From Bdellovibrionales bacterium (GTDB taxonomy: Bacteria > Bdellovibrionota > Bdellovibrionia > Bdellovibrionales > DASUEL01): 14,632 bases of DNA. The stretch lies in assembly GCA_050250255.1 (NCBI GenBank), contig JBFWOZ010000059.1:1-14632 (forward strand), read 5' to 3'. A program made the translations under genes and the position numbers. How positions within the stretch are numbered: position 1 is the stretch's first letter; every line of letters begins with the position of its first letter. The notes under the pieces are model-generated. The model searched no databases and had not been told where the DNA came from. It was given only the letters and a program-made list of their open reading frames with translations. Below are positions 1 to 14,631 of this stretch, piece after piece.

Positions 1-7
1 TCCGCCA
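1..7 (+). other. Possible 3' end of a tRNA-Ser or of an att-site copy, truncated by the window edge
   Basis: TCCGCCA matches the end of the tRNA-like ATCCCTCCCTCTCCGCCA at 13146-13163 and CCCTCTCCGCCA at 9606-9617. The downstream sequence is also similar (tccgccattaaaaatac vs tccgccactaataattc, 14/17). Only 7 nt are visible. Confidence 0.45.
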
Positions 8-12
8 TTAAA

Positions 13-69
13 AATACAGAATTCCGTATTCAGCATATTGAACCCCGAATTCAGGTTCTACGAATTCAG
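13..69 (+). repeat. Degenerate 7-bp tandem array (consensus about WATTCMG)
   Basis: Units are aatacag/aattccg/tattcag/catattg/aaccccg/aattcag, with G at 19, 26, 33, 40, 47 and 54. These are followed by gttctacg and a further aattcag (63-69). Confidence 0.65.
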
Positions 70-1004
70 TGTCCGTACCTATGGACAAAGAGTCGGGTGT
101 CGCTAATAATGAAGCGCCTATGTATTTTCATGTGGATATGGACAACTTGTGGATCTATGAAAAAGAGTTTGGAGCTCTGTCTACGGCCAGCCCTGAGGCA
201 CTTTACTCACAAGCGGCTCCGCGAATGCTAAAGCTTTTTGATGAGTTTTCTGTGAAAGCCACATTTTTTATTGTAGGTAGAGATTTAGAGTTTCCCAGTT
301 GCCAAAGTTTTTGCGAGCAAGCTCTTGATCAAGGCCATGCTTTTGCAAATCACAGTTACACTCATCCCACAAATCTCAGTGAAATGAGCTTTGATGAAAA
401 GAAGCGCGAAATTAAAATGTGTCACGAAGCTCTTCAAGATATCACCGGCATTGCGCCAATTGGCTTTCGTGGACCTGGCTATTACATAGATCAAGACATG
501 CTCGATATATTGATCAAATTGGGTTACCACTACGACTCTTCCATACTACCCGGCTTGTCGCCTACGCTCATGGGTGCCTACTTAAAGTATGTCAAACGTA
601 GTAAGGCCAATAAAAAAATTGGTAGTTCGGGCTTTTTAAACGGCAGACTTCAAAAAGTACCTCACTCTAGAGACTGCAAAGAATGGATTCAAGAAATACC
701 CGTGGCGGTGACTAAGTATGCGGGTCTCCCCATTCACTCGAGCTTTATATTTTTGTTAGGACCAGTCTACTTGAGCTTGGTCAATCGTCTCACGGATTTT
801 AAAAGCCCCATGGGTATTTACCTTTTGCACGGCATTGACACCCTTGAATTGCATGAAAAATGCCCATTGAAAAACAAGGTTCCTAGTCTCAAAAGCCCTT
901 TATCAAATAGAATGGCTCTCCTTAGAAAAATCCTGAAATCTCATAGCTCTATCCATACAAATGTGAGTCTAGAGGAGTCTCTGAGGCGCTCGGCATCGAA
1001 TTGA
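69..1004 (+). CDS. Polysaccharide deacetylase (CE4/NodB homology); true start may be ATG 81 or ATG 120
   Basis: Motifs FHVDMD, KATFFIVG, NHSYTH (metal-binding His pair), GFRGPGY and YDSS. Confidence 0.88.
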   Translation: MSVPMDKESGVANNEAPMYFHVDMDNLWIYEKEFGALSTASPEALYSQAAPRMLKLFDEFSVKATFFIVGRDLEFPSCQSFCEQALDQGHAFANHSYTHPTNLSEMSFDEKKREIKMCHEALQDITGIAPIGFRGPGYYIDQDMLDILIKLGYHYDSSILPGLSPTLMGAYLKYVKRSKANKKIGSSGFLNGRLQKVPHSRDCKEWIQEIPVAVTKYAGLPIHSSFIFLLGPVYLSLVNRLTDFKSPMGIYLLHGIDTLELHEKCPLKNKVPSLKSPLSNRMALLRKILKSHSSIHTNVSLEESLRRSASN

Positions 1005-1090
1005 CTTATTGCACACTTCTAGCTACTGATAATTACGGAAGCATTGTCAATAAACACGGTCATTTTAAGCACTTCCACGAAGGAGATTTT

Positions 1091-1462
1091 GTGACGAACA
1101 CTGGTGAATCAACCAATAGCCATGCAAGTACTTCGGGCCAAAAATCTGTCACCAAAGAGAGTGTGAGAGACTTGATTTATGAAGCTATTGATCGCGTCAA
1201 CAAACAAGCGGCAAAAACAAAAAATGTCCAATTAGAAAAAGACATGGGCACTGTGCTTTTTGGAAGCGCCAGTCAGTTGGACTCTTTAGGCCTCATCAAC
1301 TTGATTGTGGCCACCGAAGAAAATCTAGAAAACCGTTTCGGACTTGTACTGACCTTGGCCGACGAACGAGCTCTTTCACAAAAAGAAAGCCCATTTCGAA
1401 CTGTTGCGAGTTTAGTGGATTATATTTACTTATTGATGACAGAAAAAAACAGTGAATCCTAA
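1091..1462 (+). CDS. Acyl carrier protein
   Basis: LDSLG phosphopantetheine-serine motif and ACP-like C-terminus (ADERALSQKESPFRTVASLVDYI). An AGGAG RBS at 1081-1085 precedes an in-frame GTG at 1091, which is preferred over the track's 1001 start. Confidence 0.85.
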   Translation: MTNTGESTNSHASTSGQKSVTKESVRDLIYEAIDRVNKQAAKTKNVQLEKDMGTVLFGSASQLDSLGLINLIVATEENLENRFGLVLTLADERALSQKESPFRTVASLVDYIYLLMTEKNSES

Positions 1463-1477
1463 CAAGGAATACTCGCA

Positions 1478-2185
1478 TTGACTTCTGGCCAAGTTATTCT
1501 CATTACAGGCACCAGCCGCGGAATTGGAAAATTTCTCACTCAACACTATTGCCAAAAAAACTTTCAAGTGATCGGCGTGAGCCGAACGGCACCGGACTGG
1601 AAAGCGCCTAGCAATTACACACATCATATTTTGGATATCTCTAACGAAAAAGAAGTGGCGGACCTGTTTAAAACGTTAAGAACAAGCTTCAAACGTTTAG
1701 ATGTCCTCATTAACAATGCTGCTATCAACCCCAAAATAGCTCCCGCTATGCTGATGTCGATGACTGATCTTGTACAAACAATGAGTGTCAATTTTTTTGG
1801 AACATTTCTTATGTCTCGTGAAGCCGCAAAACTGATGATGAGAAATCAATTTGGGCGAATCATCAATTTGAGTTCAATGGCAGTAAAACATGAGGTGGCA
1901 GGTGAGGCAGCGTACACATCATCTAAAGCAGCTGTTGTTGCATTTACGAGAGTGTTCTCTAAAGAGGTCTACGCTCAAGGCATTACCTGCAATGTTGTAG
2001 CACCGGCAGCGATTGAAACCCAAATGATGGCCGCGGTGGATAAAAATGCGTTAGCTGATGTTTTAAAACGAAACGCCATTCCTGAAATTGGTGAATTTGC
2101 TGATGTTGCGGCAGCGACAGATTGGCTGATCTTAAAAGAAAGTCAAAAAATCACAGGCCAAACCATTTACTTGGGGGGCGCTTGA
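1478..2185 (+). CDS. SDR family oxidoreductase, FabG-like 3-oxoacyl-ACP reductase
   Basis: TGTSRGIG Rossmann motif, NNAA, and catalytic S...YTSSK. AAGGA RBS upstream of the TTG start. Confidence 0.9.
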   Translation: MTSGQVILITGTSRGIGKFLTQHYCQKNFQVIGVSRTAPDWKAPSNYTHHILDISNEKEVADLFKTLRTSFKRLDVLINNAAINPKIAPAMLMSMTDLVQTMSVNFFGTFLMSREAAKLMMRNQFGRIINLSSMAVKHEVAGEAAYTSSKAAVVAFTRVFSKEVYAQGITCNVVAPAAIETQMMAAVDKNALADVLKRNAIPEIGEFADVAAATDWLILKESQKITGQTIYLGGA

Positions 2186-2808
2186 TTCAGGTAGAGAGAA
2201 TCCCCCTAGGGCCATGGAAAACAAATTGCTTTGTGGTTTATAACAAACAAAACGAATCCTTTGTGGTGGATCCGGGTGATGATGCCTTAGAGCCCGTGTC
2301 TGAGAGCGTGAAGAGACTGGGACTTTCATTGAAAGCGATTTTATGTACACATGCACATTTGGATCATGTGGGTTCTGTGACCGAAATCAAAGAAGCCTTT
2401 GGGGTACCTGCTTACTTGCACTCAGGGGACCAGCGAATTCTCTCTCAAATAAATATGTTTCGTACTTTTTTTCAAAAAAAACAGCCCATCAAAGTGCCTG
2501 TGATAGATCATGATTTGTCTGGCGAAACGGAACTCAACATTGCGAGCTTCAAAGTTCAAGTGATTGCTGTGCCTGGGCATACACCCGGTGGAGTTGCTTT
2601 TTTGATAGAGAATTGTCTTTTTACTGGAGACACTGTGATGGAAAAGGGCATGGGACGCACCGATTTACCTGGGAGTGATCGAGAGCTATTAGTTCAGTCG
2701 GTGAAACGCTTGTTTGAGCTTCCAGCAGAAACTCATTTCTACCCTGGACATGGAAAGCCTGGTGCCCTTTCTGTCTGGAAAGAAACTCTCATGGGGAGTT
2801 TTTTGTGA
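2182..2808 (+). CDS. MBL-fold metallo-hydrolase (glyoxalase II/YcbL-like)
   Basis: THAHLDH metal motif, PGHTPG, FTGD, GRTDLPG and PGHG. A TTG at 2182 overlaps the SDR stop (TTGA) after a GGGGGG RBS-like run; homolog-like sequence begins at IQVERIPLGP. Confidence 0.9.
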   Translation: MIQVERIPLGPWKTNCFVVYNKQNESFVVDPGDDALEPVSESVKRLGLSLKAILCTHAHLDHVGSVTEIKEAFGVPAYLHSGDQRILSQINMFRTFFQKKQPIKVPVIDHDLSGETELNIASFKVQVIAVPGHTPGGVAFLIENCLFTGDTVMEKGMGRTDLPGSDRELLVQSVKRLFELPAETHFYPGHGKPGALSVWKETLMGSFL

Positions 2809-3812
2809 GAGCACAAATCAAAGCGATCTCTTCATATTTGCCGCAAACCACACTCACAAATCAGGTGCTAGCAAAACAAAACCCTAACTGGGATATGGAT
2901 TCAGTTGTGGCCAAGGCTGGGGTTGTATCACGTCACATCGCCGGAGCTGACGAAACGTCTTTCGATATGGCAGCACGAGCTTGTGATCAATTAATCAAAG
3001 AAATAGGCATAGATAAAAACTCCATCGACGGAATTATTTTTTGCACACAAAGCCCCGATTACATTATGCCTCCCAATTCGCATTTGATTCATAAACATCT
3101 TGGCCTCACGGATCGAGTGATCGCCTTTGATTTAAACCTCGCTTGTTCTGGCTTTGTGTATGCTTTAGCTCTTTGCCATTCTTTGATACACAGTAAAATG
3201 GCCTCCAACGTACTGCTCATCACTTCAGAAACCTATTCAAAGTTTATTCACCCAAGCGATCGATCGTCTCGGGTTTTGTTTGGCGATGGCGCAGCGGTTA
3301 CTTTAGTCACTGGTGCAGAGACAAAAGGTTTTATTGATAGTGAGCTTTCATCTCATGGAGATGGGTTTGAAAAGTTTTATATACCTGCCGGCGGAATGAG
3401 ATGCCCAAAATCTCAGGCCACGTCCACTGAAACAACCGACAGAAATGGAAATGTACGCTCTTTGGAGAATATCCACATGGATGGTCTGGGAGTTTGGTCG
3501 TTTATCAATTCGGTAGTGCCTAAGCAGATCAAACGGGTACTAGAAAAAAATAAACTCTCTATTCCGGATATCGATCAATTTATATTTCATCAGGCCAGTC
3601 AAATGACTATCGACAGTTTGATCAAGTCTTTGGACCTCCAAGAGAGACAGGTGTTTATTAACCTTTCACAACTTGGCAACACCGTTTCGGCCTCCATACC
3701 ATTGGCATTTAAGCAGGCCCAAGAACAGGGCGTGATTAAAGAGAATCAAAAGATTATTCTTTGTGGATTTGGTGTAGGTTTTTCTTATGCCACAGTTTTA
3801 TTAGAAACCTAG
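2805..3812 (+). CDS. fabH: 3-oxoacyl-ACP synthase III (KAS III)
   Basis: Intact Cys-His-Asn triad (LACSG, FHQA, GNT), plus FGDGAA and GFGVG. GTGA start/stop overlap with the upstream gene. Likely a cluster paralog rather than the housekeeping copy. Confidence 0.9.
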   Translation: MRAQIKAISSYLPQTTLTNQVLAKQNPNWDMDSVVAKAGVVSRHIAGADETSFDMAARACDQLIKEIGIDKNSIDGIIFCTQSPDYIMPPNSHLIHKHLGLTDRVIAFDLNLACSGFVYALALCHSLIHSKMASNVLLITSETYSKFIHPSDRSSRVLFGDGAAVTLVTGAETKGFIDSELSSHGDGFEKFYIPAGGMRCPKSQATSTETTDRNGNVRSLENIHMDGLGVWSFINSVVPKQIKRVLEKNKLSIPDIDQFIFHQASQMTIDSLIKSLDLQERQVFINLSQLGNTVSASIPLAFKQAQEQGVIKENQKIILCGFGVGFSYATVLLET

Positions 3813-3828
3813 TGATCTGGAGTCATGT

Positions 3829-5193
3829 TTGTTGTCGTCAGTGGATTCAATACATATAAGGTTTTTGCTAGAGCAGTTTCAAAATAACAGCGGTCAAACG
3901 GCGTTGGTGTATCAAGGAAGGTGCGTGAGCTTTTCTGATTTGTTAATGAATATTTCTGAGTGTAGCCGCGCCATTTCTGAACAAGGAATTCAAAGCGGCG
4001 ATGTGGTAGCGCTCGAAGCAGATTTTTCGCCCAATGGCATTGCACTTTTTTTAAGCCTCGTCGAAAAAGCTTGTCTCTTGGTCGTTCATACCAATGCCCA
4101 CCATATAGGTCGTGAGAAAAAAGACGAGATCGCACAAGTAGAATGGAATGTTGTTTGTGATAAAGAGGATAATTATAAATTTGAGAAAACACGTCGCAAA
4201 GCTCAACATGACATTTACACACATCTAAAAGATCTTAAACACCCAGGCCTGGTCTTATTTTCCTCAGGCACATCGGGCGAACCAAAAGCCGCTGTTCATG
4301 ATTTCTTGCCGCTCCTCGAGAAATTCAAAGTTCCAAAAAAGGCTATGGTCAGCCTTAACTTTCTTTTGTTTGATCATTGGGGTGGGCTCAATACAATGCT
4401 ACACACTCTCTCAAACGGAGCAGCACTTGTGAGTTTACAAGACAGGTCCCCTGAGTCTGTATGCGAGCTTATACAGTCGGCAAAAGTGCAGCTGTTACCT
4501 TCAACTCCTACATTTTTAAATCTTATGCTCCTCAGTGAAGCCCATAAAAAATATGATCTTTCAAGTCTACAAGTGATTTCTTATGGTGCCGAGCCTATGC
4601 CAGAAAAAACTTTAAGCCGACTCAAAGAAGCCTTTCCTCATATCAAGCTTCAACAAACCTATGGGTTGATCGAAGTAGGCGTGCTGAGATCTAAATCAAA
4701 AGAGAATGGCTCTCTATGGGTAAAAATTGGCGGTGAGGGATATGAGACCCGAGTTGTGGATAATATTCTACAGATTAAGACTAAATCGACTATTCTTGGA
4801 TATTTAAACGCCCTAAGCCCCATAACAGAAGATGGCTGGTTTATAACGGGTGACGAAGTCTATCAAGAGGGCGAGTATTTTCGTATTTTGGGTCGCAAAT
4901 CCGAGATGATTAATATTGGTGGGGAGAAGCTACATCCCTCTGAAGTTGAAAGCGTTATTTTACAATTAAATAACGTGGTGGATGTGACTGTTTTTAGTGA
5001 GAAGAACCCGATTTTAGGTCGCCTGCTTTGCGCGAACGTGAAATTGCAAGAGCCCGAGGATCCACGCGAGTTTTCGGATCGATTAAAAGAATTTTGCGCC
5101 GACAGACTTGATCGTTTTAAAATACCTGTAAAAATTAAGTTGATCGATGGGGAGCTCCATGGGGACAGATTTAAAAAAATCAGAAGTTTTTGA
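3829..5193 (+). CDS. ANL-superfamily AMP-dependent acyl-CoA/acyl-ACP ligase
   Basis: SSGTSGEPK P-loop, YGAEPM, QTYGLIE, WFITGD and GRKSEMINIGGEK motifs. GGAG RBS at 3819-3822. Confidence 0.9.
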   Translation: MLSSVDSIHIRFLLEQFQNNSGQTALVYQGRCVSFSDLLMNISECSRAISEQGIQSGDVVALEADFSPNGIALFLSLVEKACLLVVHTNAHHIGREKKDEIAQVEWNVVCDKEDNYKFEKTRRKAQHDIYTHLKDLKHPGLVLFSSGTSGEPKAAVHDFLPLLEKFKVPKKAMVSLNFLLFDHWGGLNTMLHTLSNGAALVSLQDRSPESVCELIQSAKVQLLPSTPTFLNLMLLSEAHKKYDLSSLQVISYGAEPMPEKTLSRLKEAFPHIKLQQTYGLIEVGVLRSKSKENGSLWVKIGGEGYETRVVDNILQIKTKSTILGYLNALSPITEDGWFITGDEVYQEGEYFRILGRKSEMINIGGEKLHPSEVESVILQLNNVVDVTVFSEKNPILGRLLCANVKLQEPEDPREFSDRLKEFCADRLDRFKIPVKIKLIDGELHGDRFKKIRSF

Positions 5194-5899
5194 TCCTAGC
5201 CGTACTGATAGTGGAGTGGAGCTGAAAGCTTTTTTGGCATTCCGTGAGTCGGGTCGTATTCCACTCAAGTACATGATCCCGCTTGGCATTAAAAGTCTTC
5301 TCTTTGACATTCCTTATGCGATTTTACAGTACTGGCCAGGACCAGTTGGGATGAAGCTGAGACAGATTTATTTTAAATTCAAATTTCATACTATGGGTAA
5401 AAATGTGATTATCGGTGCGAGTGCCGACATACAAATGCCAAGTGCCATTTCGGTGTCTGATTACGCTTTTATCGATCACCATGTGAGTTTAAACGCCATG
5501 GCCGGGAACATTCATATAGGTCGAAGAATTCATATTGCTCCCTACGCCATCATTTCGGGTGTTGGTGGTGGTATTTATTTAGGAGATTACGCTGCTGTAG
5601 GAGCGTTCGCTAGAATCTACTCTCACTCAGAAGCTCCAGTGGATGGTAAAAGACTGAGTGGCCCTATGATTCCAGAAAGCATGAAGGGCATGGTGACGGG
5701 CCCCGTTCACATTGGTAAGGATGCTTTGATAGGCACAGGTGCTGTGGTTTTGCCGGGAGTCACTTTGGGTGAGGGTGCCATTGTCGCAGCAAACTCCTTT
5801 GTTCCGGCACATACTAAAATCCCACCTTACGCCATCTATGGTGGTGTACCGGCTAAAATGTTAGGGCTTCGTCAAAAAATAACTGTAGAAGATATTTAA
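5147..5899 (+). CDS. Hexapeptide-repeat (left-handed beta-helix) acyltransferase; start may be ATG 5159
   Basis: Repeated [IV]GxxxxI hexapeptides, PVHIGKDALIGTGAVVLPGVTLGEGAIVAANS, and C-terminal GGVPAK. Confidence 0.88.
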   Translation: MGSSMGTDLKKSEVFDPSRTDSGVELKAFLAFRESGRIPLKYMIPLGIKSLLFDIPYAILQYWPGPVGMKLRQIYFKFKFHTMGKNVIIGASADIQMPSAISVSDYAFIDHHVSLNAMAGNIHIGRRIHIAPYAIISGVGGGIYLGDYAAVGAFARIYSHSEAPVDGKRLSGPMIPESMKGMVTGPVHIGKDALIGTGAVVLPGVTLGEGAIVAANSFVPAHTKIPPYAIYGGVPAKMLGLRQKITVEDI

Positions 5900-5913
5900 A
5901 CTCTGATTGGCTC

Positions 5914-8346
5914 GTGGTGAAAATGAAGGTCCAACTTCAAAATTTTCAAAAAATATTGTCTGATGGTTTTACGAGTAGCATATTAAAAAGCTGTGCTCTT
6001 GGATTTTTGCTTTTTGCTCTACAAGTTGTTTTAGGACTGTTTATTTCACTTCCTTTATTTAATGCGACTTTGGTGACTGGTCTGTCTGTTCTTGTCGTAG
6101 CGGGTTTAGAGTTCGAAAAAAAGAATTGGAGACTTTATGTGAGTGTTGGTCTGGCTATTTTAGCCTACATGAGTTTTACAAAGCTCACACCTTGGCTCAT
6201 GTCTCAATTTCCAATTTACGATTCTCCCCGTAGAGCCATCGGATATACTCAATTTTTTGCCTATCCTAAAAAGAGCGAATTTTTAATATTTACTCTCAGT
6301 ATGTTCATGGTGATGCTCATTGTTACTGTGGGTTCTGTTCTTCACTGGAGAGCAAGTCCTAGTCAGTCACAAAACGAAATCCACAGAGACACAGAGGAAT
6401 CCACGAAATGGTTTTCGTGGCATTTATTTTTGTATTGGGGTTTGTTTTTATTGATTGCTTGGCCCGACTGGAATGAGGTGGTGAAGCAACTTAAAAATTT
6501 TCAGCATACAGGTCTTTGGGATCAATCTGTATTTTGGGTCTGGAGCCAGGCCGTACATAAGGGCCTACTACCCTATGTCGATTTTTGGTTTCCGTATGCT
6601 GGGTCCTATAAAATGCTCGCACCTACGCCAGACAGCTTGTTGAGATTGTTTGTCCATGAAGCCATCGTCATGTTTTTTTTGATCCTGGGTCTTTTTAGAA
6701 CATTTGAAAATTCAACTCATAAGTTGGCCATTGTTTTGCTCCTTTTGGCTTGGGCCATGCTTGATGAAACCTTTTTGACTTGGCATAGATACCTTATTCC
6801 GTCGACCTTTTGTCTTTTAATCCCAGATTTTTTTCTAAAACAAAAAGTTCCAAAAATTTATGCAGTTGTGTTTGGACTTTATTGTGCCTATGTCTTTCAG
6901 TACGAGCCCAATCTTTTCTTCTACCCCGTGTTGGCCGTATTTTTTTTCATGGCCTACGCTGTGCTTAATAAACGCTTAGGCTTAGTTTTAAAAAATGCCT
7001 ATCCAGCTATCGTCTGCCTACTACTGGGTGTGTCTGTATTTTTTGTTTCATTGTATCTCAAGAATCAATGGTCTGGCTTTGTAAGCCTATATGAAACCCT
7101 GGGTGTGGCCTTAGAATATGGCGGTATCAACACTGATTTGCATCGTTGGTATCAAATTGGTCATTCAGCACAGCAAGTGTCTTGGCTAGCAGTCCATATT
7201 TTGTCAGCACTTGGGGCTTTGACTTTAATGCGATTTTTGACTCAAGCACCGGAAAAAAAGTTGGAGCGTTTGGGTTTTGGCTTATTCATATTTGGCCTGA
7301 CTTTGTTTCCTTTACTTCAAAAACAACTTCTTCGCCCACACATCATTGATCAAATTGCTTTGCAGACATTTGTTGGTTTAATTTCGATGCTTTTGCTGTG
7401 GGAGTGTTTTTTAAAACAAAAAAGTAAAATCTTTTTTTGGGGCGCGCTCAGCTTTATTGTTTTAAGTTTTTCGTACTCTGGTAGTTACTCTTATAGATCA
7501 TTGGGTATTCTCCTCAGCTCTGTTTATAAAATGATAACGAGCCAAGATGTGCTCAGGCACTCAGATGAGATAGAGCGCGCGCGCAATCATTTTTATTCGG
7601 AGGCCAGTTTTACAGAAGCCTTACCAAACATTCTTGACGAGGTCTCTCGTTTAAAAGAACTCGTGAAGGACCGCGAGTTTTTTGTACTTGGTGATTTTTC
7701 TCAAGTGTATGGATTTTTAGGTCAGACACCTTATTTTCACTCTACTCTCTATGAGCGCTCACCTATTTTTGAACAGGCATACACAATAAAAGAACTCGAA
7801 CGCAGAAAGCCGGAGCTTGTATTATGGAGAAGAGTTCCTGGTGAAGAGAACAAACAGCTGTATATGGATCAAGTACCATATTTTTTAAGAACTCCTTTGA
7901 TTTTTAAATACGTTATTAAAAACTTTCAGTGGAAAACAAGGGTTGGAGATTTTGATGTTTTAGAAAGGCATGAGTATCCAAGTTCTGAGCAGTTTTGGCT
8001 TAAAAGTCTTGGAAGAGATATTGACCTGGGTTACCTCCCAGCACTCTCTAGCTTTCATAGAGCGAAAGGCTGTGAGCCTCATGAGACCAGTCACTGCAGA
8101 ATTTTTTTAAAATTGAGTGTAGAAGAAAAACTTGAGCCCAGTGAAAAGTTAGTGCTGAGCTCGGAGTCTGCGTTGGGTTCAGTGAGTTTGAGCTTATCTA
8201 TCTTCGGCAATCAGCAAGTGTATTTAATAGATTGGAATCGAATTTGGTTTTCTATTTATCTTGATCTCAATAATACCAATTGGAAGGCGAGTCAGGGAAG
8301 CCTGGAGCTCGTTTGGCTTACTGATGATCCTGATGTTCTGTACTGA
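5914..8346 (+). CDS. Large multi-pass membrane protein with C-terminal soluble domain; possible GT-C-fold glycosyltransferase-like
   Basis: 810-aa ORF with many hydrophobic helices in the first ~540 aa. The loop WDQ...GLLPYVDFWFPY resembles the G-x-x-P-Y-x-D-F loop of GT-C-like proteins. The ORF is secure; the function is inferred. Confidence 0.6.
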   Translation: MVKMKVQLQNFQKILSDGFTSSILKSCALGFLLFALQVVLGLFISLPLFNATLVTGLSVLVVAGLEFEKKNWRLYVSVGLAILAYMSFTKLTPWLMSQFPIYDSPRRAIGYTQFFAYPKKSEFLIFTLSMFMVMLIVTVGSVLHWRASPSQSQNEIHRDTEESTKWFSWHLFLYWGLFLLIAWPDWNEVVKQLKNFQHTGLWDQSVFWVWSQAVHKGLLPYVDFWFPYAGSYKMLAPTPDSLLRLFVHEAIVMFFLILGLFRTFENSTHKLAIVLLLLAWAMLDETFLTWHRYLIPSTFCLLIPDFFLKQKVPKIYAVVFGLYCAYVFQYEPNLFFYPVLAVFFFMAYAVLNKRLGLVLKNAYPAIVCLLLGVSVFFVSLYLKNQWSGFVSLYETLGVALEYGGINTDLHRWYQIGHSAQQVSWLAVHILSALGALTLMRFLTQAPEKKLERLGFGLFIFGLTLFPLLQKQLLRPHIIDQIALQTFVGLISMLLLWECFLKQKSKIFFWGALSFIVLSFSYSGSYSYRSLGILLSSVYKMITSQDVLRHSDEIERARNHFYSEASFTEALPNILDEVSRLKELVKDREFFVLGDFSQVYGFLGQTPYFHSTLYERSPIFEQAYTIKELERRKPELVLWRRVPGEENKQLYMDQVPYFLRTPLIFKYVIKNFQWKTRVGDFDVLERHEYPSSEQFWLKSLGRDIDLGYLPALSSFHRAKGCEPHETSHCRIFLKLSVEEKLEPSEKLVLSSESALGSVSLSLSIFGNQQVYLIDWNRIWFSIYLDLNNTNWKASQGSLELVWLTDDPDVLY

Positions 8347-9217
8347 GAGAGTTTTTTTGTCCAAAGACAATCATTTCACCAATGTAAAAAGGGATCGAGA
8401 GATCTTTGAGTCGTTGAGGAGAGGCCTTGTAAAGTGGGCTGAGTAATTTTTGAAACTCAGGGCCAAATGTGCCGAGTACTCTATAGACAAACTCAATGGG
8501 TAGATTTTTTTTGTGACTGATCCGACGCCTAAATTCAAATCCTTTTTGTTTAAAAAGTAATTTCAAACTTTTTTCAGAAAAGAGAAAAATATGTTCAACT
8601 GGCGTGTAGGGGAACCAGTGTTTTGACATGGTTCGTGCGAGCCAGGAGCCCGAGTCTGGTGTTTGGATCATGATGATTCCACCTGGTGCTAAAAGCTCAT
8701 GAATGCGAGCAACAAGTTTGTCGGGGTTTAATACGTGCTCAATGACTCCGTTGATAGAAATCACATCAAAACTTTGAGAGGGTAAGTTGTTGAAGTAAAC
8801 ATCTGAGTTTAATACTTTTCCGGGCAAAATCTTATTCACAAACTCTACGGCCTCTGTTTGAAGCTCTATACCAAGCACATCAGCACCCTCTTTGTGAAGA
8901 GCTTCAATAAAGCCCCCCAAAAAGCATCCGATATCGAGAACTTTTAAGCCCTTGATATTTTTGCCAAGCAGCTTTAATTCATTTTTCAGGTGATCTTTTA
9001 GCCCATTGTGAATGGGTTGATACGCATCACGCATTTTGTAACCAAGAGCATAGTTACCTTTTTTTGCTTGCTCCTCGTAATGTTTTTCAATGGTGGCTGA
9101 ATCAGGCAGTGGCAATGTCACAACCAGTTTGCACTGGGGGCATTGGGCGTAGTCAAAACCCCGCTTTCTAAATTTTGCTTTATACTCAGTTTGACAAACT
9201 AAACATTGTTGTTTCAT
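8318..9217 (-). CDS. Class I SAM-dependent methyltransferase with N-terminal CxxC...CxxC zinc ribbon
   Basis: CLVC...CPQC, VLDIGCFLG (motif I), FDVISINGVIEHV and LAPGG. Overlaps the convergent membrane-protein gene by 29 bp. Confidence 0.9.
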   Translation of the reverse strand: MKQQCLVCQTEYKAKFRKRGFDYAQCPQCKLVVTLPLPDSATIEKHYEEQAKKGNYALGYKMRDAYQPIHNGLKDHLKNELKLLGKNIKGLKVLDIGCFLGGFIEALHKEGADVLGIELQTEAVEFVNKILPGKVLNSDVYFNNLPSQSFDVISINGVIEHVLNPDKLVARIHELLAPGGIIMIQTPDSGSWLARTMSKHWFPYTPVEHIFLFSEKSLKLLFKQKGFEFRRRISHKKNLPIEFVYRVLGTFGPEFQKLLSPLYKASPQRLKDLSIPFYIGEMIVFGQKNSLSTEHQDHQ

Positions 9218-9328
9218 CGGATAATTTCTGTACCTGAAAAATAGGGGTTAATTGGGTCACTAAAATGTATAGACTAATCCGGTCGAAATGTCTAAAGATG
9301 GATCAAGTATATATTCAGTATTCCGAAC

Positions 9329-9376
9329 TTGCTGGTCCGTTGACACGCGTGCGTACAAAGCAATCTTCTTCTTCAT
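9329..9376 (-). pseudogene. 5' stub of a serine recombinase (resolvase/invertase/LSR family)
   Basis: AAGGGGAA RBS, then ATG at 9376 encoding MKKKIALYARVSTDQQ (catalytic YARVS motif). Similarity ends after about 16 codons and the frame stops at 9260. Confidence 0.8.
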
Positions 9377-9399: not shown

Positions 9400-9610
9400 T
9401 TTTAGGTTTGCAAAGTGGAAATGAGCGGTACGGATTGAGTCGTTCCCAGGCATGGGCTTGGCTGCAACCAAGTAACTTGGCCACAGTTACGGTTGTCTTG
9501 TGGATTGTCATTAAAGCGGTTAGTTCAGACTTGGACAGGATCTTCGGCTCTGGATAAGCCTCGAACTCGAATACAACGGCAGAAAAGTGTTCGCCTACTT
9601 TATAGCCCTC
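9400..9610 (-). pseudogene. Possible helix-turn-helix gene remnant upstream of the recombinase stub
   Basis: Open frame EGYKVGEHFSAVVFEFEAYPEPKILSKSELTALMTIHKTTVTVAKLLGCSQAHAWERLN. VAKLLGCSQAHAWERL fits an HTH pattern. There is no ATG/GTG/TTG start between the in-frame stop inside the repeat and ATG 9511. Confidence 0.4.
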
Positions 9611-9688
9611 TCCGCCACTAATAATTCCGGAATCCCGGTATACAAGTTAACCGGTATACCCGAATTCCCGAATGAAATCTGGTTCTAC
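9606..9688 (+). repeat. 83-bp direct repeat, copy 1 (att-like; tRNA-Ser 3' end plus 8-bp tandem array)
   Basis: CCCTCTCCGCCA...AAATCTGGTTCTAC is identical base for base to 13152-13234. Confidence 0.97.
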
Positions 9689-9732
9689 GGTTTTTAGAAC
9701 TTAACCTACCCACAAATGTGTGGGTTTTGGCT

Positions 9733-9813
9733 GAAGCCGGGAGAAGCCGGTACGGACACACTTTTGGGACTCAACGCGTCCCAAAAGTGTGTCCGTACCG
9801 GCTTCCCGGCTTC
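9733..9813. repeat. Long inverted repeat (REP/REPIN-like hairpin)
   Basis: 9743-9770 is the perfect reverse complement of 9778-9805 (28 bp, 7-nt loop TCAACGC). 9733-9740 pairs with 9806-9813 after a 2-nt bulge. Confidence 0.95.
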
Positions 9814-9843
9814 GCACAAGGTTTACTCATTTGCTATTTATCT
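9814..9843 (+). repeat. 30-bp near-identical copy of 11364-11393
   Basis: GCACAAGGTTTACTCATTTGCTATTTATCT vs GCACAAGGTTTACTCGTTTGCTATTTATCT; single mismatch A9829/G11379. Confidence 0.95.
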
Positions 9844-10000
9844 CTATAAAGTCTTTTCGAACGGAATAGCCGAACTTACCATCGCAGGACATGAGCCTTT
9901 AGACTGTGAGATCGTTATACCGACCAACATGTATATGAATATGTCTGCTGAACAGGCGATTGCTGACGCCGTTCAACGTTTCCGTGAAGAAAATAAATAA
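9815..10000 (+). pseudogene. Probable orphan 3' gene fragment (...AEQAIADAVQRFREENK*)
   Basis: Protein-like open frame ending at TAA 10000. The 5' part of the track ORF (9716-9813) is only the translated hairpin. Confidence 0.4.
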
Positions 10001-10140
10001 TTACCGATCTCTCAGAGAGAATATAAAAAATTAAAATTCGTTTTGTGAAACGAATGATGAAACAAGTGGTGTGTGATGTTTTTCATCAAAGAATCATAGC
10101 GATGTGCTACTGGTCGCACCTCTTTTAAATTTTAATGATC

Positions 10141-10947
10141 TTAAAACTTAAACCAGTCAATATTTAGACATGCCAGAATTTCTGAATCGCTTTCTTTCAC
10201 CTTCATTGTAGTGTCTTGAATAAAATTGGTTAAATCACTACGGATTTCTTCGAGCGCTTTTTTTGAGAGCGAAAGTGGACCCGTAAAAAATAATTCCTCA
10301 GAATCCATATGTCCCATTTTCTGTAGTCCTTTTATTCGCCAGTTGGCGTGATGACGATTCACTAAGGGGGATGTTGATTCCACATGAGTGGACTTTGGGC
10401 CGATTGCGTATCGGCCATCTTTTTCGACAACAAGTCGTTGTCGTATGAGAAACTCTAAGACTTCGGCGACAAGGGGGCGGGGGAGCTGAAAATGGTGAGC
10501 AATGGATTCGAGAGTGGAAAAAGATTTAATAGAGGTACTTAGTCGTATTCCACTGTAATACCAGTTGGAATAAAAGGTAGATCGGACCTCCTCCACAATG
10601 TCTTTTTCAGGTTGAAGACGAGATTTTAAATTTCGTGCCTCTGTTTTTTTCAGGCGTATCTTTTTCTCAATAAAGCTTTTCCATTTTTGGGTACTTGCTC
10701 GCGCATGATCTACAAGAAGTAGAAAGAAATCTCGCTCTATTTCGGAAAGACCCAAGAATTCCGAGAGCTCTAACGCTTGATCAATGCCCAACTCTCGATT
10801 GCCTTTAAATATCTGACTGATTGTCACACTGTTGATTTTTAAATGTTCTGCCAACCGCTGGTACTGGCCATACCCCTTCTTTGGCATCTCCTGAATGCGT
10901 GTGTTCACAAAGAGTTTGTAGTCGTCAAAATCAAATACTGAAACCAT
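10141..10947 (-). CDS. TIGR02147-family protein (N-terminal XRE-like HTH, C-terminal DUF4423-like), putative regulator
   Basis: Characteristic VFDFDDYK start, HTH LAEHLKINSVTISQIFKGNREL, YSNWYYSGIR, HHANWR and C-terminal CLNIDWFKF. GAGG RBS. Confidence 0.85.
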   Translation of the reverse strand: MVSVFDFDDYKLFVNTRIQEMPKKGYGQYQRLAEHLKINSVTISQIFKGNRELGIDQALELSEFLGLSEIERDFFLLLVDHARASTQKWKSFIEKKIRLKKTEARNLKSRLQPEKDIVEEVRSTFYSNWYYSGIRLSTSIKSFSTLESIAHHFQLPRPLVAEVLEFLIRQRLVVEKDGRYAIGPKSTHVESTSPLVNRHHANWRIKGLQKMGHMDSEELFFTGPLSLSKKALEEIRSDLTNFIQDTTMKVKESDSEILACLNIDWFKF

Positions 10948-10959
10948 AGGGCCTCACTT

Positions 10960-10977
10960 ATTAGCATATTTGCTAAT
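10960..10977. promoter_or_regulatory. Candidate operator palindrome in the divergent promoter
   Basis: ATTAGCA-TATT-TGCTAAT has perfect 7-bp arms and lies 13-30 bp upstream of the TIGR02147 start. Confidence 0.55.
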
Positions 10978-11064
10978 GGTTTTGTTAAAAATTAAATAAA
11001 TAAATCTAGATTTTCCTGTTTCAGTCAATTAGTTTCGCCGCATCTTTAGGTTTTAGGAGTTTTT

Positions 11065-12381
11065 ATGAATGCACGTAACTTTGTGGTTTTGATGGTCTTG
11101 TTTCTTTTTGGATGTAATTCCAGTCAGCCCAGCTCTGCTCCAAATTTTCCTGTAAGCGAAGCGCAAACAAAAAATGAAGGAGCCATTGATAGTGGCGGTG
11201 GAGAATTAAAGAAAAGAGCGTCAGGTTCTGCGTGGTTTGTGGGCGCAGATAAAACGATTCGATATTGTGTTCGTGTGGCGCCTGACTTTGGTATGCCTGA
11301 AGAACAGGTGGGAGATTTAATTAGCCGCTCTTTCCAGCAATGGTCAGATTACATGGCTAATCAGCACAAGGTTTACTCGTTTGCTATTTATCTACCGCGA
11401 AAACATCAAGAGGTCCGTTGCGGTGAGGAACATGATGTGACTTTTCTAATGGGTATCAATACTGAGACAGTTGAGAAGGCAAAAAAACACTATGATGTTT
11501 CAGCAGCCTTTGCAGTGAGAACCGAATATGATTTAGACAAGGGTTGGGGCAAAGGACTTGTTTGGGTTTCCGCTGAAGAAGAGCTTGCCAGTGCGGTTGG
11601 CAAAGAGTGGAAGTGGCCAGCCAATTACAAAGTTTCTTTTTGGAAAGAACCGCGTCGTGTGCATGGTCTCATTCTTCATGAGATTGGTCATATTTATGGT
11701 TGTGGTCACATGCCAGGCACCATTATGCGTGAAGATATTGTGCGAGCGGCTTTGATGGAGAAGTCTACGGTGCAGAGCTTGCCCTATGATCCTGAACTTT
11801 ACTATTCGCGCCTCACCACAATAGACGACAGTCGACAGTTGAGTTTTCCTTATAAACCCACTCAATATTTGATGGGACATTTAAGTATACAGTCGACTTT
11901 AGGAGTCAGTGTGGATCAAAGCGCACAGCATTTTGAACTGCTTGTAGGGAGAAAACCAGTCGGTAAAATGTATGTGCTTTATCGTCAAGTAGGAGATTCT
12001 GTTTTTCCGACGAATGAACTTCTCATTAAAGATCAATTGGGCGTTGCTCGTATACCTCTTCAAATTGTAAATAATAATTTTGATCAATCGTTTGGTGCGA
12101 GCCTTTTCCACTATGACTCCAACCTATCTGATATGCGATACCCAGCAGGGGCTAATAGAGACTATTCCCGCATAAAAATGGCCAAAGTTCTTTTGCCTTC
12201 CGGAAAAGAAATGATGGTTGGTATTGATGAGAACACAAACAATACAAACTATTGGGCTGGTGGCTTTCTGAGAATTAGAAAATTAGAGCGAGATGTAGAA
12301 GAAACACTCTTTCACTCGAGCTTAGCAGTACAACAACTCCCAGACGATGAAGTAAAAAAACTTTTTAACATTCGGGAATAA
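11065..12381 (+). CDS. Lipoprotein zinc metalloprotease (metzincin clan, matrixin-like)
   Basis: AGGAG RBS; signal peptide with lipobox-like LFGC (Cys17); HEIGHIYGCGH (HExxHxxGxxH) followed by a candidate Met-turn (GTIM). Confidence 0.8.
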   Translation: MNARNFVVLMVLFLFGCNSSQPSSAPNFPVSEAQTKNEGAIDSGGGELKKRASGSAWFVGADKTIRYCVRVAPDFGMPEEQVGDLISRSFQQWSDYMANQHKVYSFAIYLPRKHQEVRCGEEHDVTFLMGINTETVEKAKKHYDVSAAFAVRTEYDLDKGWGKGLVWVSAEEELASAVGKEWKWPANYKVSFWKEPRRVHGLILHEIGHIYGCGHMPGTIMREDIVRAALMEKSTVQSLPYDPELYYSRLTTIDDSRQLSFPYKPTQYLMGHLSIQSTLGVSVDQSAQHFELLVGRKPVGKMYVLYRQVGDSVFPTNELLIKDQLGVARIPLQIVNNNFDQSFGASLFHYDSNLSDMRYPAGANRDYSRIKMAKVLLPSGKEMMVGIDENTNNTNYWAGGFLRIRKLERDVEETLFHSSLAVQQLPDDEVKKLFNIRE

Positions 12382-12384
12382 AAC

Positions 12385-13017
12385 ATGAAAAACTATTTTG
12401 TAACGCTTGCTATTTTTGGCTTTATTTTTTCAGCACAAGCCCAGGAAGTATCTTCGACTACGTCAAACTCTATAGACCCTCAGAAGCAGGTTGGAGAAAA
12501 TAATTTTCGATTTTTCCCGTTCAATCTTGTGACGAAGAGTTATCATGGAGCCTTTGAACGTCGAATCTCGTCGCAGTGGGCGCTAGGGCTTGAGGGGGCT
12601 TGGCAGAGTCAATTTGAAAGAATCTCCGATTATGGAAATGCTCGTGAAAGATACATTGGTTTATTTGCCCAATACTATCTTAAGCAGTCGATGAAGGGCT
12701 ATTTTCTTGAGGGCGGGTTAAACTATGCGACCGTTGAATTCTCGGATTTTGTTACGACATCGGGAGTAGCTCAGTTTGCCCATTTCTATTTGATGCCACA
12801 TTTAACAATAAATCATAGGTTTGTGGCCGACTCAGGTTTGAGTTTCACAATTGGATCTGGTGCCTATCTCTATTTGGGTGATTCAGTAGAAACTCGCCGT
12901 GTGATCGGCGCATATGCAGACTCGAATTCGTCTGGGCTTATCACAGAAAAAGAAAGAGACCATTACACCTTTATTCCGCAGCTTAGAGTTCGTGCTGACA
13001 TTGGATATACGTTTTAG
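12385..13017 (+). CDS. Outer-membrane beta-barrel protein (DUF3575-like)
   Basis: Signal peptide ending in AQA, alternating aromatic/hydrophobic strands, and a C-terminal BAM-type signal IGYTF. Starts 3 bp after the protease stop. Confidence 0.7.
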   Translation: MKNYFVTLAIFGFIFSAQAQEVSSTTSNSIDPQKQVGENNFRFFPFNLVTKSYHGAFERRISSQWALGLEGAWQSQFERISDYGNARERYIGLFAQYYLKQSMKGYFLEGGLNYATVEFSDFVTTSGVAQFAHFYLMPHLTINHRFVADSGLSFTIGSGAYLYLGDSVETRRVIGAYADSNSSGLITEKERDHYTFIPQLRVRADIGYTF

Positions 13018-13145
13018 CAAATCCATGAAACGAGAGGACGTCTTTAAGATGTCTTCAGGGGACCTGAGCGACAATTGAAGCGTGACAAGTTATTGAATTT
13101 ACTAAAAACTGTGAACTAACAAGAACTTGCGAAGAGGCGGGTTAT

Positions 13146-13163
13146 ATCCCTCCCTCTCCGCCA
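13146..13163 (+). other. Isolated tRNA-Ser-like 3' fragment (attR-like)
   Basis: ATCCCTC-CCTCTCC-G-CCA reads as T-stem 3' strand, acceptor 3' strand, discriminator G and CCA. The T-loop is degenerate (GGGTTATATCCC instead of GGGTTCGAATCCC) and no GGAGAGG 5' acceptor strand lies upstream. Confidence 0.7.
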
Positions 13164-13234
13164 CTAATAATTCCGGAATCCCGGTATACAAGTTAACCGG
13201 TATACCCGAATTCCCGAATGAAATCTGGTTCTAC
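13152..13234 (+). repeat. 83-bp direct repeat, copy 2
   Basis: Identical to 9606-9688. Confidence 0.97.
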
Positions 13235-13445
13235 TGTTCAGACAACATTCTAAATAGTTTTAAAAGTGACAATTTGTCTCAAACAGAGAGAAAAAAGTCT
13301 CACGATTTTTCTATTTTATTAGCTATTCAGTTATGTGGAATCGAGATTCGTTCTATTACTTATTTCATAGATAGGTTTTAAGTCTGGTCTAGCGCAGAAA
13401 CTCTTTTTTTTCGTGTAAGATAAATCCATAGCTATCATTTTTCTT

Positions 13446-14141: not shown

Positions 14142-14631
14142 TAACTGGTGATAAAAAATCCTGGAAGTGACATGTTCTGCACCCAAATTCTTTTCCAAAT
14201 TTATTGATATGCCTGTTCTCATGACAGCGCACGCAGGTCAGGTCGACCGCTTGAAATTGGTGACCTCGATTTGTCGGTCCGCCATGGCAGTCGGCGCATG
14301 CGATGGCTCTGAGGACTGATTTTTCTTTAGGGAGATCGGAAACAGCTCGAGGATCAGCATTTCGCTCTCCCTCGGTGAGTTCTAAGGAATTCAATAGCTG
14401 TAAGTCTGTCATTTTGGAGAGATGAACTTTATGAAGATATGACTTGTCGACCTTTGGTATTTTTTCGATTTCTTCAAACGGCATTGGACCAGTAAGTGTG
14501 GAACGATCTTGATGGCCCGAGAGATGGCAGGAGGCACATAGATTTTGCTTTACATAAGGAGTGTGGTGTAAGTCTTTTGGAAAAGTTGGACGCTTTGTGA
14601 GCATCACATATAATTCGGTAACATAAGCTCT
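14095..14631 (-). CDS. Multiheme cytochrome c, C-terminal part (5' end probably outside the window)
   Basis: CASCH, CADCH, CVRCH and CRTCH motifs. The frame stays open from 14607 to the window edge (RAYVTELY). Confidence 0.85.
   Translation of the reverse strand, partial: RAYVTELYVMLTKRPTFPKDLHHTPYVKQNLCASCHLSGHQDRSTLTGPMPFEEIEKIPKVDKSYLHKVHLSKMTDLQLLNSLELTEGERNADPRAVSDLPKEKSVLRAIACADCHGGPTNRGHQFQAVDLTCVRCHENRHINKFGKEFGCRTCHFQDFLSPVTTFSSFEKKVFVNEK

Follow-up and report, generated by a model that had tools for sequence, protein, structure and literature searches.

RNA-guided systems with a 3′ guide (IS200/IS605 TnpB) and CRISPR arrays combine a hairpin with a downstream spacer-sized stretch that matches a gene. 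Templated insertions are placed at deletion junctions by template switching, and examples are known from eukaryotes. TIRtrons, or TIRYTs, contain a Y1 transposase gene between terminal inverted repeats (TIRs), dimers of which occur elsewhere, as outlined by Di Nocera et al. 2013 (PMC3733652) and Quentin et al. 2018 (PMC6006769). We analyzed a 14,632-nucleotide stretch of DNA from a Bdellovibrionales bacterium, hereafter the window, in which a hairpin is followed by a 30-nucleotide copy of part of a neighboring protease gene. The copy has a common hairpin repeat on one side and the tail of a broken, unrelated gene on the other. This position makes an ordinary scar of DNA rearrangement, left in a decaying genomic island, its most likely explanation, rather than a guide or antisense RNA.

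The copied segment and its source

A repeat search of the window identified a direct repeat of positions 9814-9843 and 11364-11393, spaced by 1550 nucleotides and identical at 29 of 30 positions. Pairs of this kind are expected by chance in the window at 3.9e-8, and the flanking sequences diverge at once at both edges of the match. The source (11364..11393, plus strand) encodes part of the variable loop that separates a conserved Trp from a conserved Cys in an intact metzincin-type protease (11065..12381, plus strand), which carries the motif HEIGHIYGCGH and, judging from its N-terminal Cys, is likely a lipoprotein. The single mismatch is located in protease codon 105, where the copy has TCA and the gene has TCG, both encoding Ser. 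These properties agree with the first-pass annotation, which had described the near-exact match, its synonymous mismatch, its sharp ends and its occurrence beyond chance. No third near-exact copy of the segment was found in the genome.

The same annotation had missed what lies downstream. The copy is real, but it is no isolated non-coding segment, as its reading frame continues into what is left of the 3′ end of a MauJ-family gene, where it stands (9814..9843, plus strand) in place of ten former MauJ codons. It belongs to a predicted chimeric open frame of 94 amino acids (9716..10000, plus strand) composed of the left flank, the hairpin, the protease decamer and the MauJ tail, which corresponds to the single-member gene call P0005 in a public collection. 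Copies of short coding stretches in nearby intergenic DNA occur at four loci in the genome, including this one, and the three others resemble remnants or element features.

The copy probably replaces codons of a truncated MauJ-family gene

The remnant downstream of the copy (9845..10000, plus strand) comprises the last 51 codons and the stop codon of a MauJ-family gene. The residues encoded by 9845-9997 are identical to those of three full-length MauJ-family proteins at 45, 41 and 40 of 51 positions, the first being protein P0111, and the remnant scores 74.7 bits against a hidden Markov model of 120 MauJ relatives. Full-length relatives are 423-493 amino acids long and contain the PF17419 domain. 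The remnant matches neither PF17419 nor any other Pfam family, and the domain itself is gone. The gene breaks off at the foot of the hairpin; the approximately 390 codons of its 5′ part were not found in the assembly, and only residues 377-439 of P0111 have a match in the genome.

Ancestry changes sharply at 9843/9844. Protein P0111 is identical to the locus at 27 of 28 positions just after the copy and at 1 of 10 within it (Fisher p = 6e-7), and among 1,046 pairs of MauJ members with 21-22 identities in the 28 positions after the copy point, three have at most three identities in the decamer. The protease decamer scores 0.2 bits against a profile of 120 full-length MauJ relatives, below all of them, the lowest member reaching 18.9 bits, and is therefore foreign to the MauJ gene. 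The next three blocks after the decamer are within the range of the 120 members. The contrast between the 45/51 tail and the 1/10 identity over the copy indicates that protease DNA took the place of MauJ sequence, with both frame and register maintained. To the protease family the decamer has a neutral fit, equaled by 1,150 of 3,000 random decamers; that the segment is native to the protease is judged from the intact protease gene together with the exclusion of the decamer from MauJ. An initial reading of the copy as native to MauJ, with the protease as recipient, was ruled out by the profile tests. Nor is there support for MauJ homology that extends leftwards beyond the copy or through the hairpin, as invariant positions fail.

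The copy nevertheless fits its MauJ position better than chance, its score being reached by 842 of 200,000 random decamers. In expected DNA match to a back-translated MauJ segment, its source ranks 8th among 6,554 places in the cassette. With single closest relatives, also back-translated rather than real MauJ DNA, the rank is 24-126 of 6,556, and about 200-250 for the last 15 nucleotides. Such a fit is the trace expected from similarity-guided rejoining, and these comparisons suggest that the protease and MauJ stretches were probably weakly alike before the event. The modest extent of this prior similarity counts against a similarity-guided join.

Searches of 300 genomes of the order and 400 genomes of the phylum did not recover the MauJ tail. 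Neither viral contigs nor phage records contain a match to P0111, and the MauJ-family protein has none in PADLOC or the PDB. A literature search on MauJ with HEPN returned nothing relevant.

The hairpin core is a dispersed repeat linked to a Y1 transposase

The 81-nucleotide hairpin at 9733-9813 folds more stably than controls (z = -11.6 and -13.7). The first-pass annotation had placed the copy directly after its last paired base; the hairpin is real, and its last pair is at 9813 or 9815, as two more base pairs (9730-9731 with 9814-9815) can form beyond a bulged T. The hairpin is composed of a 51-bp repeat core and GC-rich outer arms (9733-9748 and 9800-9813). The core (9749..9799) is a doublet of 22-bp terminal inverted repeats with a 7-nucleotide loop, one of 16 such doublets in the genome, and a repeat arm folds only with its partner arm. 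The GC-rich outer arms are absent from all 15 other doublets, which have an A directly to the left, a T directly to the right, and A/T-rich flanks in 14 of 15 cases. This difference suggests a local rearrangement.

Arms of the same repeat at C8:18738-18759 (plus strand) and C8:19421-19442 (minus strand) flank a Y1 gene (C8:18789-19412, PF01797); there are eight Y1 matches in the genome. Its RAYT/TIRYT-like transposase scores 55.6 bits against NF047646 (E = 5e-15), which marks it as related to that family although it falls short of the cut-off of 80. In the 16 doublets, the arms start with GGTAC or AGTAC and lack GTAG. The 22-bp arm is also present in other Bdellovibrionales genomes. Repeats that flank a Y1 gene and also occur as dispersed dimers without GTAG make the family a candidate of the TIRtron/TIRYT type, in which the transposase would mobilize the dimers. 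The absence of a GTAG foot and a short internal palindrome, and a transposase below the RAYT cut-off, set it apart from REPINs and RAYTs in the strict sense.

To the left of the hairpin lies a small 7-bp hairpin followed by T's (9708..9725, plus strand; motif count of one in the genome), which competes with pairing between the left flank and the copy. We rejected a candidate outer G-U-rich stem formed by 9713-9732 and the copy. Shuffled flanks fold equally well (60/400 and 185/400, plus strand), random genomic 30-mers do so in 553 of 1000 cases, and the local 7-bp hairpin wins in a longer fold.

The setting of the locus

The setting is a decaying island, marked by att-like repeats of 87 bp, by the stub of a recombinase gene, and by a contig beginning at the 3′ end of a tRNA-Ser. 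The unit bounded by the repeats is 3,546 bp long and located near a tRNA-Ser; the repeat was compared with tRNA-Ser(GCT). The left repeat (9606..9692, plus strand) resembles a tRNA-Ser 3′ end with a downstream hairpin and is identical at 86 of 87 positions to the right one (13152-13238). The right end (13126..13238, plus strand) is attR-like, with the decayed 3′ half of a tRNA-Ser (about 13126-13163) that leads into the repeat, and a tRNA search of the window called no tRNA. An 18-nucleotide match of window positions 14601-14618 to a tRNA-bearing contig is probably due to chance. The recombinase stub (9260..9376, minus strand) has no Pfam match and loses similarity after its YARVST start, which we take to be that of a serine recombinase; resolvases of the genome start with the related YIRVST or YKRVST.

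The cassette also encodes a TIGR02147/DUF4423 helix-turn-helix protein (10141..10947, minus strand), one of 25 such loci in the genome. A 210-residue protein with a signal-like start and a terminal Phe (12385..13017, plus strand) has no family match and, from these features, is likely an outer-membrane barrel. A search of the ESM Atlas gave low-scoring matches only. No unrearranged relative of the locus was found, protease relatives being at most 36% identical, and the ancestral state is therefore unseen. Two other origins, an insertion that duplicated a 30-bp target and an att core lying within the protease, were rejected, as there is no 5′ part of the protease to the left of the copy.

Proposed routes to the probable scar

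We lean towards the view that the copy is the scar of one replication or repair event that deleted most of the MauJ gene. DNA synthesis may have stalled or broken at the 81-nucleotide hairpin and switched to the protease gene, 1.55 kb away, where a stretch of 30 nucleotides was copied, so that the transfer would have run from the protease gene to the remnant. The strand would then have rejoined the MauJ gene where the protease stretch resembles MauJ codons, which would explain why reading frame and register were kept, and all sequence from the hairpin to the rejoining point would have been lost. Of the three readings offered by the first-pass annotation, the one that invokes capture or template switching at the end of the hairpin fits the evidence and is here made specific as a templated insertion at a deletion junction.

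It is also possible, if less probable, that the scar formed in two steps. The protease and MauJ stretches, being weakly similar, would first have undergone unequal crossing-over that duplicated 1.55 kb in tandem. A later deletion, with one end at the hairpin and the other inside the first of the two protease copies, would have left only the last 30 nucleotides of that copy at the join. This route leads to the identical end structure and accounts for the in-register join. Tandem duplications at 0-5 bp of shared sequence are described for Acinetobacter in PMC9997567, and deletions beside mobile elements are described as common in PMC11708052. At locus L063 of this genome, a lone copy of the same inverted repeat adjoins a truncated, 87% identical copy of a nearby Rhs-like gene. 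Two events are nevertheless required, the second ending within 30 nucleotides of the join, and no longer duplication or joint that could represent an intermediate was present in the contigs of three runs. One genome cannot tell the one-step and two-step routes apart.

We consider it improbable that a Y1 (HUH) transposase captured the segment by cutting single-stranded DNA at two places, one close to the hairpin and one within the protease gene, and joining the pieces by strand transfer. The repeat flanks a Y1 gene in a genome with several Y1 matches, and related enzymes cut C|T or C|A beside REPs and perform strand transfer in vitro, as described in PMC8266576. A CA at 9815-9816 and a CT at 9842-9843 mark both ends of the copy, but these dinucleotides are common and were chosen after the fact. 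Furthermore, the repeat lacks the GTAG motif of the studied enzymes, there is no sign of capture at the 19 other repeat sites in the genome, and strand transfer alone leaves the in-register MauJ fit unexplained. A broader proposal, that a domesticated, TIR-associated Y1 transposase of the host cuts at the feet of its hairpin repeats and splices in short pieces of neighboring genes in vivo, here making a 30-nucleotide antisense element against the protease of a predatory bacterium, is unlikely as well. Taken jointly, the single-step, two-step and Y1 capture routes make a scar very probable.

Functional readings of the hairpin and copy

We presume that the scar is without function; it could be transcribed nonetheless. 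That it specifies an antisense RNA is very unlikely. A minus-strand transcript, arising by read-through from the TIGR02147 gene or from a promoter near 10020, would end in the hairpin and pair with the protease mRNA. The orientation is right, a sigma-70-like site is located at 10049-10020 on the minus strand, and the predicted 30-bp duplex has an energy of -47.7 kcal/mol, but such an energy follows from any exact copy. Promoter-like sites occur at chance level (five found, 4.2 expected), no terminator-like site is predicted at the hairpin, and over the locus no Rfam family reaches the threshold, the matches being hairpin look-alikes only. The first-pass annotation had suggested looking for the same arrangement at other TIGR02147 loci; the hairpin-plus-copy layout is missing from the 24 others in the genome and from the 29 best-matching loci of relatives.

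The reading as a scaffold with a 3′ guide, directed by an undescribed RNA-guided protein acting in trans against the cassette's own gene, is more doubtful still. On the plus strand, a spacer-sized copy does lie directly 3′ of a strong hairpin, and about 19 HNH proteins in the genome are unexplained. The supposed scaffold, however, is a dispersed repeat whose other copies lack guides. Recurrent gene matches beside them, which the first-pass annotation had named as support for a system, are absent from all 19 other sites in the genome, and no spacer-sized gene copy flanks the repeat at 19 loci in other genomes. This non-recurrence largely refutes the guide, which moreover runs on in frame into a pseudogene and pairs with the left flank no better than shuffled or random sequences do. 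The search for effector genes covered TnpB/Cas12f (PF07282) and Cas1 (PF01867), neither of which was found in the 99.2%-complete assembly, and no IS110 recombinase (PF02371) was found in the genome. In diversity-generating retroelements, template and variable repeat differ at adenines; the one difference here is A in the copy and G in the gene, and a single site carries no weight. Thirty nucleotides is short for such a template repeat, and no reverse transcriptase (PF00078) was found in the genome. The outer arms and left flank of the hairpin match nothing near the HNH genes or elsewhere in the genome. What had been proposed as a candidate undescribed system is best read as a one-off junction that runs into a broken MauJ gene.

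Strong hairpins can disturb assembly and contigs were the only material at hand, but an assembly chimera is scarcely credible, as the two copies differ by one base, frame and register with MauJ are preserved across the join, and both copy edges are crossed by contigs, not raw reads, of two samples with 0 differences (9659-13181 in run X1, possibly the source of the window, and 9547-9875 in run X2, from another sample of the same study at a depth of 2.6).

Implications and comparison with known systems

The locus, a lone scar of rearrangement known from one uncultured Bdellovibrionales genome, matters little as it stands. It calls for caution in genome scans, as a hairpin with a spacer-sized self-match may be a pseudogene junction, which was exposed here by translating the DNA downstream of the "guide". 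The locus also documents, with unusual clarity, a natural frame-keeping join between weakly similar coding sequences, and such joins are one origin of chimeric open frames. Should the Y1 transposase be responsible for the join, the locus would offer rare in vivo evidence of the activity of these domesticated enzymes.

The repeat resembles TIRtrons and TIRYTs as described in PMC3733652 and PMC6006769, in which a Y1 gene is flanked by TIRs without GTAG and dimers are moderately abundant genome-wide. It differs from those descriptions in that the 22-bp arm lacks the GGGGWSAS motif at its end, and in the unique GC-rich outer arms of this copy. The available parts of the two accounts describe no gene fragment captured beside a dimer. 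With REPINs and RAYTs, as presented by Bertels and Rainey 2011 (PMC3116915) and in PMC8266576, it shares an extragenic inverted doublet, a long hairpin and the link to a Y1/HUH transposase. REPINs are described there with a GTAG foot, a short internal palindrome and hundreds of copies, in contrast to 16 here, and the C8 transposase remains below the NCBIfam cut-off for RAYTs. The locus differs from TnpB and CRISPR systems in that no effector gene (TnpB/Cas12f or Cas1) was found, in that it lacks an array, a conserved scaffold and recurrence, and in that it matches the element's own neighbor. Compared with MauJ-domain proteins of about 440-450 amino acids (PF17419), to which its C-terminal 51 residues are up to 88% identical, the locus retains only the tail. 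In a limited literature search, we found no bacterial description of a frame-keeping templated insertion with this signature. Templated insertions and illegitimate joins share with the locus a breakpoint beside secondary structure at which a short stretch of nearby DNA has been copied almost exactly and with sharp ends, whereas the insert described here also keeps the frame and register of the gene that it replaced.

Reality and edges of the 30-nt copy

The stretch 9814-9843, which directly follows the hairpin 9733-9813, is a direct repeat of 11364-11393 within the metzincin-type protease gene (11065-12381, plus strand), with 29 of its 30 bases identical. The lone mismatch (TCA/TCG) is synonymous in the protease, the match has sharp edges on both sides, and the chance expectation for such a pair in the window is about 4e-8. 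The window is the whole of its contig, from an assembly of 3.09 Mb and 99.2% completeness. A contig from one sequencing run, possibly the window's source, spans 9659-13181, and a contig from a second sample spans 9547-9875, both with zero differences to the window. The copy is real, as the first-pass annotation had described it. Local direct copies between coding sequence and intergenic DNA (24-60 nt, at most two mismatches, gene calls made in this analysis) occur at four loci in the genome, the window's among them. Separately, an island-like region of contig C45 carries, between its genes, an 83-nt remnant of a gene close by (14168-14250 and 17413-17494).

The hairpin repeat

In the 51-bp hairpin core (9749-9799), 22-bp inverted repeats are paired as a doublet. 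Of the 20 genomic sites of this repeat, 16 are doublets, two are degenerate, and two are single arms that enclose a Y1 tyrosine-transposase gene (C8:18789-19412). The GC-rich outer arms of 14-16 nt in the 9733-9813 hairpin are found nowhere else in the genome, and the flanks of the other 15 doublets are A/T-rich. All but one of the records with the same hairpin repeat are named Bdellovibrionales or Bdellovibrionia. In other Bdellovibrionales genomes (loci L047-L065), the 22-bp arm bounds elements of 51 bp, 73 bp, ~170-230 bp (these have long, imperfect palindromes inside), and ~700 bp, which points to a family that comprises Y1-associated elements and miniature versions of them. Palindromic repeats of a second dispersed family lie at 9624-9673 and 13170-13219; related copies follow tRNA-Asn (C10) and tRNA-Ala (C15), and others lie beside HNH genes (C29, C30, C39, C1).

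The copy adjoins a truncated MauJ-family gene

The reading frame across the copy stays open until a stop at 10000. The residues encoded by 9815-9997 had 22 matches among 1.84 billion representatives: one was the query sequence, another an unrelated repeat protein, and the other 20 were relatives, of which three contain the MauJ domain PF17419. A profile built from 12 of these relatives, with the window's own sequence left out, retrieved 440 proteins, the best 120 of which all contain PF17419 and are 423-493 aa long. The window's last 51 residues are identical to the closest full-length relative (P0111) at 45 positions, and the remaining parts of MauJ relatives have no match anywhere in the assembly; 9845-10000 (plus strand) is thus the 3' end left over from a MauJ-family gene that was truncated recently. 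Searches of 300 genomes from the order and 400 from the phylum did not find this tail. Plasmids and a viral contig carry MauJ relatives, as would fit island cargo. The family has no PADLOC or PDB match. This 440-aa family (P0022-P0149; L068:1-1395; L070:6064-7320) has hundreds of members, also on island-like DNA, and a defence role is a guess.

Alignments starting inside the copy first suggested that it was native to MauJ, which a profile test overturned. The copy's ten residues score 0.2 bits on the MauJ profile, under all 120 members (minimum 18.9), and the blocks after it score as typical MauJ. Identity to P0111 is 27/28 past the copy versus 1/10 inside it (p = 6e-7). Judged by these scores and identities, the stretch is foreign to MauJ and probably derived from the intact protease. 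The source stretch sits in a variable loop of the protease. For the protease family the decamer is a neutral fit, equalled by 1,150 of 3,000 random decamers; its fit to the MauJ position beats chance (matched by 842 of 200,000). With a 30-member profile, the stretch is 8th of 6,554 cassette places in expected DNA match to the MauJ codons that were displaced; with each of the three closest proteins singly it is 24th, 29th and 126th of 6,556, at most 18-20 of 30 bases. This is moderate evidence that weak similarity guided the join; a guide-acquisition machine would have no reason to respect similarity to MauJ.

Island setting

The hairpin, MauJ tail, TIGR02147 gene (10141-10947, minus strand), protease, and a probable outer-membrane gene form a 3,546-bp unit bracketed by an 87-bp direct repeat (86/87). 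Each repeat copy starts as a tRNA-Ser-like 3' end; a degenerate tRNA half precedes the right-hand copy. The window's contig opens with a tRNA's final 3' bases, and tRNA-Ser(GCT) closes contig C10. A stub at 9260-9376, which we take to be recombinase-like, has no Pfam match. We infer that islands are stacked at tRNA-Ser and that deletion has shrunk the inner one. The gene cluster at 1-9217 begins right at the tRNA 3' end and is probably a second island; its labels, read off translations except for the methyltransferase, are polysaccharide deacetylase-like, acyl carrier, reductase, FabH-like, AMP-ligase, acetyltransferase, membrane, and methyltransferase.

Recurrence of the arrangement

The first-pass annotation had looked to other hairpin copies for recurrent ~30-nt gene matches, and to other TIGR02147 loci for the same arrangement; neither materialized. 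When the 60-nt flanks at each of the 20 repeat sites were compared with the genome, only the window's site had a spacer-length match to a coding sequence (0 of the 19 others). The remaining strong flank matches involved another repeat family, DNA next to paralogous HNH genes, or a pair of duplicated sites matching each other. At 19 repeat loci from other genomes (two pairs redundant), no spacer-sized copy lies within 3 kb. At L063:3001-3183, a lone inverted-repeat arm abuts a 150-nt, 87% copy of an Rhs-like gene 1.9 kb away; the copy seems to be a truncated paralogue. The genome has 29 TIGR02147 matches, merging into 25 loci; at none of the 24 outside the window does a repeat hairpin lie next to a gene copy within 5 kb. 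Across 300 genomes of the order, TIGR02147 had more than 600 matches; the best 29 of these loci, viewed with 1.5-kb flanks, also lack the layout. Short coding-sequence copies of a different kind occur at two of the 24 loci, a ferredoxin 3' end on C1 and an HNH palindrome on C10.

The ferredoxin 3' end (C1:57351-57376) is duplicated 1,046 bp downstream (58397-58422), directly after the stop of a TIGR02147 paralogue (C1:58423-59232), and looks like an integration scar. The TIGR02147/DUF4423 genes at the 25 loci nearly always adjoin a gene, divergent or directly downstream, for a protein with a signal-like start. About 19 HNH proteins of the host have a weak DUF222-like N-terminus (C10:42709-43602, C18:38164-39060, C8:46204-47007, and ~16 paralogues). 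Several of their genes hold a palindrome ~610-680 nt into the gene, and three (C10, C18, C8:46204) have a similar one 260-310 nt upstream; on C10, 43868-43897 and 42925-42954 agree at 29/30. Such pairs could be operator pairs or mobile-element ends.

Origin of the copy

We lean slightly towards a single template-switch event as the most economical route to the copy. DNA synthesis would have stalled or broken at the hairpin, jumped 1.55 kb, copied 30 nt of the protease gene, and rejoined the MauJ gene at similar codons, with deletion of the DNA between the hairpin and the rejoining point. Of the options in the first-pass annotation, a scar is favoured, the copy being joined to the truncated MauJ gene at the repeat edge. 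A duplication at the similar patch, followed by a deletion starting from the hairpin, would yield the same product and is a possible but less likely route; both event types have precedent, as illegitimate duplications and element-adjacent deletions are documented (PMC9997567 and PMC11708052). Strand transfer by the Y1 enzyme might have made the join, because C|T or C|A near REPs is where related enzymes cut (PMC8266576), but capture is seen at no other repeat copy, and we consider this improbable. A functional antisense RNA from the copy is very unlikely, and a guide even more so: both lack positive support, the apparent long stem taking in the copy is not significant, promoter-like sites are no more than chance level, and Rfam gives nothing above threshold. 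The proposed scaffold with a 3' guide RNA further lacks recurrence in the repeat flanks, and a search of the genome for four families (Cas1, TnpB, IS110, and reverse transcriptase) found none of them. An assembly artefact is the least credible explanation, given the matching contigs of both samples.

We conclude that 9814-9843 is a genuine rearrangement scar that can be described precisely, lying at the border of a Y1-associated repeat within a decaying island. The type of event is already known, and the window adds one more case. The Y1 protein is RAYT-like yet under the family cut-off (55.6 versus 80 bits), and the repeat arm lacks GTAG; therefore, the hairpin element fits the TIRtron/TIRYT class (Di Nocera et al., PMC3733652; PMC6006769) better than strict REPINs (PMC3116915).
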